Part shown: piece after piece, positions 54,066 to 57,960 of the stretch | How positions within the stretch are numbered: the stretch's first letter is position 1 | Layout: the number at the start of each line of letters is the position of its first letter | Assembly: GCF_002854065.1 (NCBI RefSeq) | Contig: NZ_CP024147.1 | Length of the DNA stretch: 64,000 nucleotides | Source of the DNA: Escherichia coli | GTDB lineage: Bacteria > Pseudomonadota > Gammaproteobacteria > Enterobacterales > Enterobacteriaceae | Direction: 5' to 3' (one strand) | Made by a program: the position numbers and the translations under genes | Notes under the pieces: model-generated | The model's database searches: none | Seen by the model: only the letters and a program-made list of their open reading frames with translations | What the model was told of the DNA's origin: nothing

Positions 54066-54117
54066 ATGTTGTTCCTGTTACCGTGGTGTAAATAATCAAA
54101 TTCAGGGTAATTAATGG

Positions 54118-54185
54118 CCCCGGAGCGGGTTTGCGCCCCTCACCCTAATCCTCTCCCCAGAGGGGAGAGGGAACTGCCAGTGCGC
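54118..54185. repeat. GC-rich palindromic intergenic element between glnH and glnP
   Basis: CTCTCCCCAGAGGGGAGAG perfect palindrome within GC-rich context. Confidence 0.6.
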
Positions 54186-54999: not shown

Positions 55000-55020
55000 A
55001 TATATGAAAAAATCGTGCCA
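55000..55020 (-). promoter_or_regulatory. sigma54-type promoter (glnHp2-like)
   Basis: Minus-strand TGGCAC-N5-TTTCA upstream of glnH. Confidence 0.55.
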
Positions 55021-55093
55021 GTTTTGCAACTCATTGATTTTTCGAGATGCGGCAAAAACGTGATGCACGATTTATAGGGCAATACCCTGAAGA

Positions 55094-55137
55094 TGCACCA
55101 TTCTGGGGCACCAAACTGGTGCGCTAAAAATGTGCAC
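55094..55137. promoter_or_regulatory. NtrC (NRI) enhancer sites
   Basis: TGCACCATTCTGGGGCACC and TGGTGCGCTAAAAATGTGCA, matching TGCACC-N5-GGTGCA half-site pattern. Confidence 0.65.
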
Positions 55138-55353
55138 TCAATACAGTGATTATTTAGCGTAAAACCTGATGAAAAAACAATCTTTATGTAACGATTGTGT
55201 GATGATGTGGATACAAAAAATTTACTTAATCAGCTGGGGATAGCAGATGGATGCACTAAATAAGTGCGTTGAGGCGGGCTGCAAAACAAAACGGCCTCCT
55301 GTCAGGAAGCCGCTTTTACCGTGTACTAAAGTTCTGCACCATCAGCGATGGAT

Positions 55354-56001
<648 letters not shown>

Positions 56002-56117
56002 TTAGATATATTGATAAGAACAATTCTTATTTATTTACTCGCCAGGAATTTTCGGAATAAATATGCTTTTGCATAATTCGATATATAAAGACGGTGTAGA
56101 GGAAAAGTAGCGAGAAA

Positions 56118-56147
56118 TTCTGCATGGTTATGCATAACCATGCAGAA
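56118..56147. terminator. 30-bp perfect palindrome downstream of rhtA (terminator or operator)
   Basis: TTCTGCATGGTTATG|CATAACCATGCAGAA; minus-strand T-rich tract follows. Confidence 0.5.
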
Positions 56148-56155
56148 ATGTAAAT

Positions 56156-57043
56156 TTAATTAATGTCTAATTCTTTTATTTTGCTCTCTTTGCGTACTGT
56201 CAGCGTAGAACCCATTGAAGCGGCGATAATTGCGCCGAGCGCCAGCAGCTGTATGGGTGTCAGTGTTTCTCCGAGGAAAATCATCCCGGAAACGGCAGCC
56301 AGCGCCGGTTCCATGCTCATCAGCGTACCAAATGTCCGTGTTGGCAAACGGGTGAGGGCAATCATTTCCAGCGAATAAGGCAGAGCGGTCGAGAGAATAG
56401 CGACCGCCAGACCCAATGGAATAACCGACCAGTGCCAGAGTGCTTCACCAGCCTGAAGCGCTCCAATTGGCACGAAAATTAACGCTGCAATCAACGAACC
56501 AATTGCCACCGTCGCAGGGCCATGTTCCGCTCCTGCGCGTTGCCCACTTAAAATGTAAATAGCCCAACAAGCCCCGGCCCCCAGTGCCAGCGCACAGCCG
56601 GTTAAATCGACATGGGAAACGTCTTGCCCCAGCGGTAGCAGGAACCACAGACCAAGAACCGCCAGCACAACCCAGACGAAATCTACCGGGCGACGAGAAG
56701 AGAACAGCGCCACCGCCAGTGGTCCGGTGAACTCCAGCGCCACCGCAATACCCAGCGGTACCGTCTGAATAGAGAGATAAAAAAGATAATTCATCCCACC
56801 CAGCGAAACGCCGTAAAACAACAGCGGTAACCGTTGCTCTTTGGCAAAGCGCAGTCGCCATGGCTTAAAGAACGCGATGAGGATCAGCGTTCCTAATGCC
56901 AGGCGCAGTGCAGTGACACCCGGTGCGCCCACCAGAGGAAAAAGTGACTTAGCTAACGAGGCTCCACCCTGAATAGACGCCATGGCAACGAGCAATATGA
57001 CTATTGGTAACCAGACCGGCATTTTACGTAATGAACCAGGCAT
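56156..57043 (-). CDS. rhtA: Threonine/homoserine exporter (DMT family)
   Basis: Start at MPGSLRKMPVWLPIV (295 aa); 10-TM pattern. Confidence 0.9.
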   Translation of the reverse strand: MPGSLRKMPVWLPIVILLVAMASIQGGASLAKSLFPLVGAPGVTALRLALGTLILIAFFKPWRLRFAKEQRLPLLFYGVSLGGMNYLFYLSIQTVPLGIAVALEFTGPLAVALFSSRRPVDFVWVVLAVLGLWFLLPLGQDVSHVDLTGCALALGAGACWAIYILSGQRAGAEHGPATVAIGSLIAALIFVPIGALQAGEALWHWSVIPLGLAVAILSTALPYSLEMIALTRLPTRTFGTLMSMEPALAAVSGMIFLGETLTPIQLLALGAIIAASMGSTLTVRKESKIKELDIN

Positions 57044-57395
57044 CCTTTCTCCCACAAATATCTAGACTTAAGTAAAGCGTGGAGTGTACTGGATATACCC
57101 AATGCTGGTTGAGCATTTGTTGAAAAAATTTTCCCCCGTTTTGACTAAAATGCGCCAGGATTGATGGAATCATTAGTCTGGTGATTAGGAATAATCTGGA
57201 TGAATGACAGGGAAAACATGCGTAATACTTACGCAGTTCTCTGAAAAAGTGATTTAAATTTAGATGGATAGCGGTGTATGGAAACGTTCTGTTACATGAA
57301 ATGGCCCGTTAGACATCACAAATCGCGAAGAGTTTCCCATTAATTTTTGATATATTTAAAACTTAGGACTTATTTGAATCACATTTGAGGTGGTT

Positions 57396-57911
57396 ATGAA
57401 AAAAATTGCATGTCTTTCAGCACTGGCCGCAGTTCTGGCTTTCACCGCAGGTACTTCCGTAGCTGCGACTTCTACCGTAACTGGCGGTTACGCACAGAGC
57501 GACGCTCAGGGCCAAATGAACAAAATGGGCGGTTTCAACCTGAAATACCGCTATGAAGAAGACAACAGCCCGCTGGGTGTGATCGGTTCTTTCACTTACA
57601 CCGAGAAAAGCCGTACTGCAAGCTCTGGTGACTACAACAAAAACCAGTACTACGGCATCACTGCTGGTCCGGCTTACCGCATTAACGACTGGGCAAGCAT
57701 CTACGGTGTAGTGGGTGTGGGTTATGGTAAATTCCAGACCACTGAATACCCGACCTACAAACACGACACTAGCGACTACGGTTTCTCCTACGGTGCTGGT
57801 CTGCAGTTCAACCCGATGGAAAACGTTGCTCTGGACTTCTCTTACGAGCAGAGCCGTATTCGTAGCGTTGACGTAGGCACCTGGATTGCCGGTGTTGGTT
57901 ACCGCTTCTAA
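57396..57911 (+). CDS. ompX: Outer membrane protein X
   Basis: Start at MKKIACLSALAAVLAFTAGTSVA (171 aa); ends ...GYRF. Confidence 0.95.
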   Translation: MKKIACLSALAAVLAFTAGTSVAATSTVTGGYAQSDAQGQMNKMGGFNLKYRYEEDNSPLGVIGSFTYTEKSRTASSGDYNKNQYYGITAGPAYRINDWASIYGVVGVGYGKFQTTEYPTYKHDTSDYGFSYGAGLQFNPMENVALDFSYEQSRIRSVDVGTWIAGVGYRF

Positions 57912-57925
57912 TCGCTTTGGTGATA

Positions 57926-57960
57926 TAAAAAATCCGCCTCTCGGGGCGGATTTTTTGTTT
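57926..57960. terminator. Bidirectional terminator between ompX and opgE
   Basis: AAAAAATCCGCC...GGCGGATTTTTTGTTTT. Confidence 0.8.

Follow-up and report, generated by a model that had tools for sequence, protein, structure and literature searches.

The 30-bp perfect inverted repeat between rhtA and dps in Escherichia coli is very likely the DNA template of a 3'-terminal stem-loop of the rhtA mRNA. This reading rests on the structure itself, on its compensatory conservation in Enterobacteriaceae, on the preference for the rhtA-sense strand and on a published in vivo 3' end. The hairpin is an ordinary terminator-type element, and both the repeat and its 3' end have been published before; a function at the rhtA 3' end is now assigned to a repeat that the dps literature treats as a DNA target of Dps. 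In the mechanism that we propose, the transcript would fold into a 13-bp stem located 8 nt past the stop codon once RNA polymerase has passed the end of rhtA, and the rhtA transcripts would have their ends 7 nt beyond the stem, within a short pyrimidine tail, UUUCUCG. The hairpin would set the rhtA 3' end, shield it from 3'-to-5' exonucleases and limit read-through into the dps regulatory region. We infer that in E. coli the end arises by weak intrinsic termination at the hairpin and UUUCUCG, which we favor over Rho-dependent termination followed by trimming, and the insulation of dps would be the benefit for which the hairpin has been selected.

A perfect palindrome between rhtA and dps

In the window (the whole 64,000-nucleotide stretch of E. 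coli DNA that was analyzed), the repeat consists of TTCTGCATGGTTATG followed directly by CATAACCATGCAGAA, two arms of 15 nt that are 100% complementary with a spacer of 0. The first-pass annotation of this DNA had described a perfect 15+15 inverted repeat 3' of rhtA and upstream of the dps promoter region, and both parts of the description are borne out: the repeat is exact at 56118-56147 and far beyond chance, and the gene coordinates confirm its placement (Table 1). No other palindrome in the 64-kb window combines a zero spacer with arms of at least 8 nt. Arms of 15 nt were obtained in 0 of 200 first-order Markov shuffles of the window, in which the longest arm was 14 nt and was seen once, and by our own arithmetic the expected number of such palindromes is about 6×10−5 per 64 kb. 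A search for the same palindrome elsewhere, which had been proposed as a check, gave no further copy in the 64-kb window with up to 3 mismatches allowed and a single site per genome in 5420 of the 5426 complete E. coli genomes, 5421 of which carry the rhtA-dps spacer; the genome search returned two places per genome, and these were taken as both strands of one palindrome. The palindrome corresponds to 849172-849201 in MG1655 (NC_000913.3), where window coordinates are converted by adding 793054.

As RNA in the rhtA sense, the palindrome forms a hairpin with 13 bp in the stem and 4 nt in the loop (−18.7 kcal/mol, z = −4.0). The 5' arm is formed by 56135-56147, the 3' arm by 56118-56130 and the loop, UGCA, by 56131-56134. 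As in intrinsic terminators, a stable stem-loop is thereby found directly downstream of the transcription unit, and only 5 of its 13 pairs are G-C. The plus strand folds equally well, because any perfect palindrome must, and the zero-spacer perfection has no meaning at the RNA level because the central bases must form the loop. The palindrome is remarkable as DNA symmetry, not as RNA stability; the earlier remark that typical terminators are shorter and less perfect therefore holds for the symmetry of the DNA and fails for the stability of the RNA.

The first base of the palindrome lies 8 nt past the rhtA stop codon. Relative to the dps start site, inferred from the −10 hexamer, the palindrome is about 221-250 bp upstream. 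More than 150 bp separate it from the core dps promoter region. Within the core region, the block at 55939-55958 is highly conserved in the spacer conservation profile, and we take this block to be a putative OxyR site. Another conservation island is located at 56059-56064 (73-98% over 61 Enterobacteriaceae spacers), about 165 bp upstream of the inferred dps start; the rhtA-dps spacer around it is variable, and neither the hairpin nor the core promoter accounts for this island.

A scan of 55000-57500 against Rfam 15, with E values up to 10, gave no match overlapping 56085-56175. Weak matches to ctRNA_p42d (E = 0.0046), STnc70 and isrD were seen downstream of dps at 55281-55371. The matches coincide with the dps intrinsic terminator (55280-55316), the 3' end of which is mapped at 848334-848340 (window 55280-55286), and are probably look-alikes of the terminator hairpin and not sRNA genes.

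Table 1. Features at the rhtA-dps junction, in window coordinates
Feature	Position	Strand	Basis or remark
rhtA CDS, threonine/homoserine exporter	56156-57043	minus	stop codon TAA at 56156-56158
Palindrome, very likely the rhtA 3' stem-loop	56118-56147	minus	fold, covariation, same fold printed in the TRS table
Tail UUUCUCGCU	56109-56117	minus	contains the mapped rhtA 3' terminus
C-rich, G-poor 60 nt after the hairpin	56058-56117	minus	14 C and 5 G by hand count
Core dps promoter region	55858-55958	minus	−10 hexamer TATACT at 55904-55909; block CTATTAGTGTGATAGGAACA at 55939-55958
dps CDS, next gene downstream of rhtA on the same strand	55354-55857	minus	

Conservation of the hairpin in Enterobacteriaceae

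A Dps query against one genome per species gave 80 Enterobacteriaceae loci, and rhtA is immediately upstream of dps in 77 of them, which represent 76 distinct sequences. In 70 of these 76 distinct loci, an RNAfold window scan found a hairpin of −12 kcal/mol or lower within 75 nt past the rhtA stop; in several loci, bulged stems escaped an ungapped hairpin finder, and the RNAfold window scan is taken as the reliable count. The mean hairpin energy over the loci is −18.4, compared with −7.0 in shuffles. An ungapped stem was identified in 53 loci whose spacers measure 270-330 nt, and in these the distance from the rhtA stop to the hairpin is 5-15 nt (median 8). The other six of the 76 loci show no strong hairpin after rhtA, and all of them have short spacers of 115-217 nt (115-130 nt in loci L013, L015, L045, L059 and L068, and 217 nt in L007). 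It is among these loci that Pseudocitrobacter, Trabulsiella and Klebsiella indica are found, with spacers that are much shorter. In the genera that lack the hairpin, rhtA may read through toward dps or may use another mode of termination.

In Escherichia, Salmonella, Citrobacter, Enterobacter, Lelliottia and their relatives, conservation of the outer arms, (TA)TTCTGCATG and CATGCAGAA(TA), is 90% or more. The inner stem and the loop vary between genera (e.g., GGTT/AACC, GGC/GCC and GATG/CATC), and the spacing of the conserved arms ranges from 8 to 10 nt. Identity to E. coli is 74% in the arms, 47% in the inner stem and loop, and about 30% in the flanks. Kosakonia and Phytobacter keep a related stem through double changes, such as CAGCATG/CATGCTG and TGGCATG/CATGCCA, and unrelated hairpins are found at the same position in Buttiauxella, Cedecea, Raoultella and Klebsiella. 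In an alignment of 42 sequences, 15 of 16 pairs are changed on both sides and the core 10 pairs are almost always paired. Paired cells in this alignment amount to 86%, compared with 30-43% when the partner is slid by 1-3 columns, and 0 of 500 shuffles matched the observed covariation on any measure, with the proviso that the sequences are related and that independent events are fewer than the counts of covarying cells suggest. RNAalifold gives the same stem. The covariation, the variable arm spacing and the islands of conservation in the arms thus show the pattern of base-pairing selection and not that of a fixed-geometry dimeric DNA-binding site.

The two strands were also compared. When the stability of the hairpin alone is considered, the rhtA-sense strand is better in 51 loci, the antisense strand in 12, and the two are equal in 13. 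Similarly, 39 G·U pairs in the sense strand stand against 22 A·C pairs, some of which are at terminal positions and are not real pairs. A comparison of whole 60-nt segments was noisier owing to pairing of the flanks (43 vs. 31, P = 0.18, Wilcoxon test), and the hairpin-only comparison was adopted in its place. The strand test is supportive and not conclusive, because the related sequences are not independent.

Zero-loop perfection of the palindrome is found only in Escherichia, which has GGTT-ATGCAT-AACC, whereas Citrobacter relatives have GGTT-TGCAT-AACC or GGTT-GCAT-AACC. Judging from these sequences, the perfect palindrome probably arose when a change of one loop base gave the Escherichia lineage the self-complementary ATGCAT. 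The symmetry also varies within E. coli. The common variant 56118 T>A, present in three of the four variant strains sampled, breaks the outermost pair, reduces the palindrome to 14+14 and gives a tail with a longer U run, AUUUUCUC. In another E. coli strain (L002), a change in the flank makes the palindrome grow to 17+17.

The 3' end of rhtA transcripts

A "Primary" rhtA 3' terminus on the minus strand is given at 849163-849170, with 849165 as the dominant position, in the TRS table (PMC10687069, Supplementary Data 3), the register of which was verified against the thrL entry. This peak is at 56109-56116 in the window, and 849165 is 56111, a G located 7 nt after the last paired base, 56118. 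The transcript end is then ...CCAUGCAGAAUUUCUCG, and the in vivo 3' ends of the TRS data agree with the distance of about 7-9 nt after the stem that characterizes intrinsic terminators. The rhtA entry of PMC10687069 prints exactly the same fold at −18.7 kcal/mol. Its signal is 0.91, and the adjusted P values are 0, 0.19 and 0.003, so that two of the three LB replicates are significant; the entry probably comes from the LB RNAtag-seq data set. The gene is weakly expressed (PMC10687069, Supplementary Data 4), and the 3'-end evidence is thin. No 3' end at the palindrome is found in the curated Term-seq list of Adams 2021 (PMC7815308) under its three conditions, a list that includes the dps and ompX 3' ends. 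This absence may be due to the low expression of rhtA, which could likewise hide a Rho region. Literature searches on the terminator, UTR and intergenic region of rhtA gave nothing relevant to the element. The mapped rhtA 3' ends lie 2-9 nt after the stem, an outcome that the first-pass annotation had named beforehand as refuting a special role of the palindrome.

The tail after the stem, UUUCUCGC, contains 4 U in 8 nt in K-12, short of the U-tract of about 7-9 nt of intrinsic terminators; written further, it is UUUCUCGCUACUUUUCC. The TRS table (PMC10687069) gives a maximum U-tract of 4 for the rhtA entry, and the site escaped a consensus terminator scan that asks for at least 5 T in 8. Since this tail is U-poor, the hairpin is at best a weak intrinsic terminator. 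It had also been suggested to be a strong bidirectional RNA hairpin. Covariation and 3' ends sustain an RNA hairpin on the rhtA-sense strand only, and bidirectional termination was rejected: both flanking genes are on the minus strand with no convergent gene, no plus-strand 3' end near the palindrome is present among the Adams 2021 or TRS entries listed, and the U residues of the plus-strand tail, AUGUAAAUUUAAUUAAUG, do not form a contiguous tract.

How the end arises could also be explained without intrinsic termination. Polymerase would read through the hairpin, Rho would terminate transcription downstream, and exonucleases would trim the transcript back to the protective hairpin. This is possible, and on the whole we consider it unlikely. 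It would fit a conserved hairpin that lacks a U-tract and is followed by a C-rich and G-poor tail. Among the 53 orthologues, the tail has no more than 4 U in 8 nt in 50 and at least 6 in none, and Enterobacter tails are essentially without a U run. The orthologue tails average 23.3% C and 10.9% G, with C exceeding G in 50 of 53, and on base composition the 60 nt after the E. coli hairpin could serve as a Rho-loading (rut-like) region. The skew is modest, however, as C also exceeds G in the remainder of the spacer (19% vs. 15%). Moreover, none of the bicyclomycin-defined Rho regions of Adams 2021 (supplementary file 2) is located at 8490xx-8492xx, and the E. coli end at +7 in UUUCUCG is where intrinsic termination is expected. 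Weak intrinsic termination at the hairpin is for these reasons the reading that we prefer in E. coli.

Several other hairpins in the window coincide with published 3' ends. Between the convergent genes ompX (plus strand) and opgE (minus strand), a GC-rich hairpin at 57927-57956, with a 12-bp stem and a 6-nt loop, is flanked by an A run and a T run; in the T run, the window has one T more than the MG1655 sequence in the Adams table. Published 3' ends flank this hairpin, that of ompX at 851011 on the plus strand (about window 57957) and that of opgE at 850979 on the minus strand (about window 57925), and it looks like a true bidirectional intrinsic terminator. Between glnP and glnH, a GC-rich imperfect palindrome, ccctcaccctaatcctctccccagaggggagaggg, occupies 54114-54175, and a strong "orphan" 3' end has been reported within it at 847200 on the minus strand (window 54146). 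Its appearance is that of a repeated extragenic element that serves as a 3' end or stabilizer within the operon. Furthermore, the "orphan" plus-strand 3' ends 850273 and 850293 of Adams 2021 fall at a short hairpin, TGCGTAATACTTACGCA, at 57219-57239, which precedes the small ORF yliM by about 40-60 nt and ompX by about 160-180 nt. These ends suggest premature termination or processing in the ompX leader.

DNA-level readings and likeness to known systems

The repeat has also been viewed as an element of the DNA, in which a duplex or cruciform palindrome would be a preferred contact of the nucleoid protein Dps and would help to shape the topology and positive autoregulation of the dps promoter. 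We think it quite improbable that this explains the palindrome, although a DNA-level role of Dps could coexist with the RNA role. In the passages of PMC5553809 that concern the repeat, it is the center of a footprint made by Dps in vitro, the authors consider that it might act through topology in the autoregulation of dps, and a Dps ChIP signal is present at the locus. The same passages describe a Pdps-gfp reporter that is down 1.5-fold in a dps-null strain, with the repeat unmutated; the authors, however, credit this effect mainly to Fis competition at a proximal site. The corresponding passages of Melekhov 2015 (PMC4433220) mark repeats in a scheme of the dps regulatory region and report an affinity of Dps for branched DNA, but the repeat-bearing distal fragment bound Dps less well there than the promoter-proximal fragment did. 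The single-stranded DNA of the arm has a folding energy of −13.3 kcal/mol (z = −6.2), which is in favor of a DNA structure. In contrast, the DNA used for the footprint was linear, and cruciforms do not extrude from linear DNA. The G·U wobbles and the sense-strand bias fit RNA and not a symmetric duplex DNA, and the position of the hairpin follows the rhtA stop (5-15 nt) and not the dps promoter.

A combination of both levels appears more doubtful still. The RNA would end the rhtA transcript, and the DNA, with a palindrome that is perfect only in Escherichia, would be a structural or cruciform contact of Dps with positive feedback on the dps promoter. Because the stem is only 8 nt past the rhtA stop, a ribosome at the stop could occlude it, and with such occlusion termination, and hence read-through into dps, would depend on the translation of rhtA.

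It had been proposed as well that the palindrome is the binding site of a dimeric regulator. An operator for a sequence-specific dimeric transcription factor regulating dps or rhtA would account for the perfect dyad symmetry and for the strong conservation of the outer arms TTCTGCATG and CATGCAGAA from Escherichia to Enterobacter. This is nevertheless highly improbable and the proposal is not supported, since the arm spacing varies between 8 and 10 nt where half-sites should be at a fixed spacing, compensatory substitutions occur, and distant genera have unrelated hairpins at the same place. The site is also 221-250 bp away from Pdps, on the downstream side of rhtA; it has a single copy, nothing similar occurs in the window, and the passages on the dps region in PMC5553809 and PMC4433220 name only Dps as a regulator there. 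A REP/BIME-like repeated extragenic palindrome or the remnant of a mobile element has hardly any chance of being the explanation, for although the palindrome is intergenic, 5420 of 5426 E. coli genomes have a single site each and not many copies, and the palindrome is AT-rich unlike REP, matches no Rfam family, and is syntenic and vertically inherited across genera.

The assignment to the rhtA 3' end calls for caution in reading Dps footprints or reporter constructs that contain this distal fragment. The conserved 3' hairpins of Enterobacteriaceae that lack a U-tract also gain one more member, and this class bears on the share of bacterial 3' ends arising from non-canonical termination or trimming.

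Compared with known systems, the rhtA hairpin shares with E. coli intrinsic terminators, such as those of dps and ompX/opgE in the window, a stable stem-loop just past the stop codon at the end of a transcription unit. Its energy of −18.7 is comparable with, and no stronger than, those of the dps (−20.1) and opgE (−15.2) terminators in the TRS table (PMC10687069). Unlike these terminators, its stem starts only 8 nt past the stop codon, and according to the part of PMC4824070 that deals with this arrangement, poor function is expected of a terminator at so short a distance from a translated gene. The distance of 7 nt between the stem and the in vivo 3' end is again as in intrinsic terminators, whereas the AU-rich stem and the tail UUUCUCGC in place of a run of 6-9 U are not.

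A second likeness is to Rho-dependent transcripts that are trimmed back to protective 3' stem-loops, as Dar and Sorek in 2018 are said to have described. The rhtA hairpin resembles such stem-loops in being conserved without a U-tract, in the C-rich and G-poor RNA that follows it and in having 3' ends a few nucleotides past the stem. It is unlike them in that Adams 2021 has no bicyclomycin-sensitive region at the rhtA site.

Finally, the "30 bp inverted repeat" in the relevant passages of Melekhov 2015 and Antipov 2017 is the same element, as the footprint 216-281 bp upstream of Pdps fits 56118-56147. Neither paper mentions rhtA, and those passages do not link the repeat to hairpins or 3' ends. 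They present it as a structural contact of Dps on the DNA, whereas the comparative and 3'-end evidence given here points to a role in the RNA.
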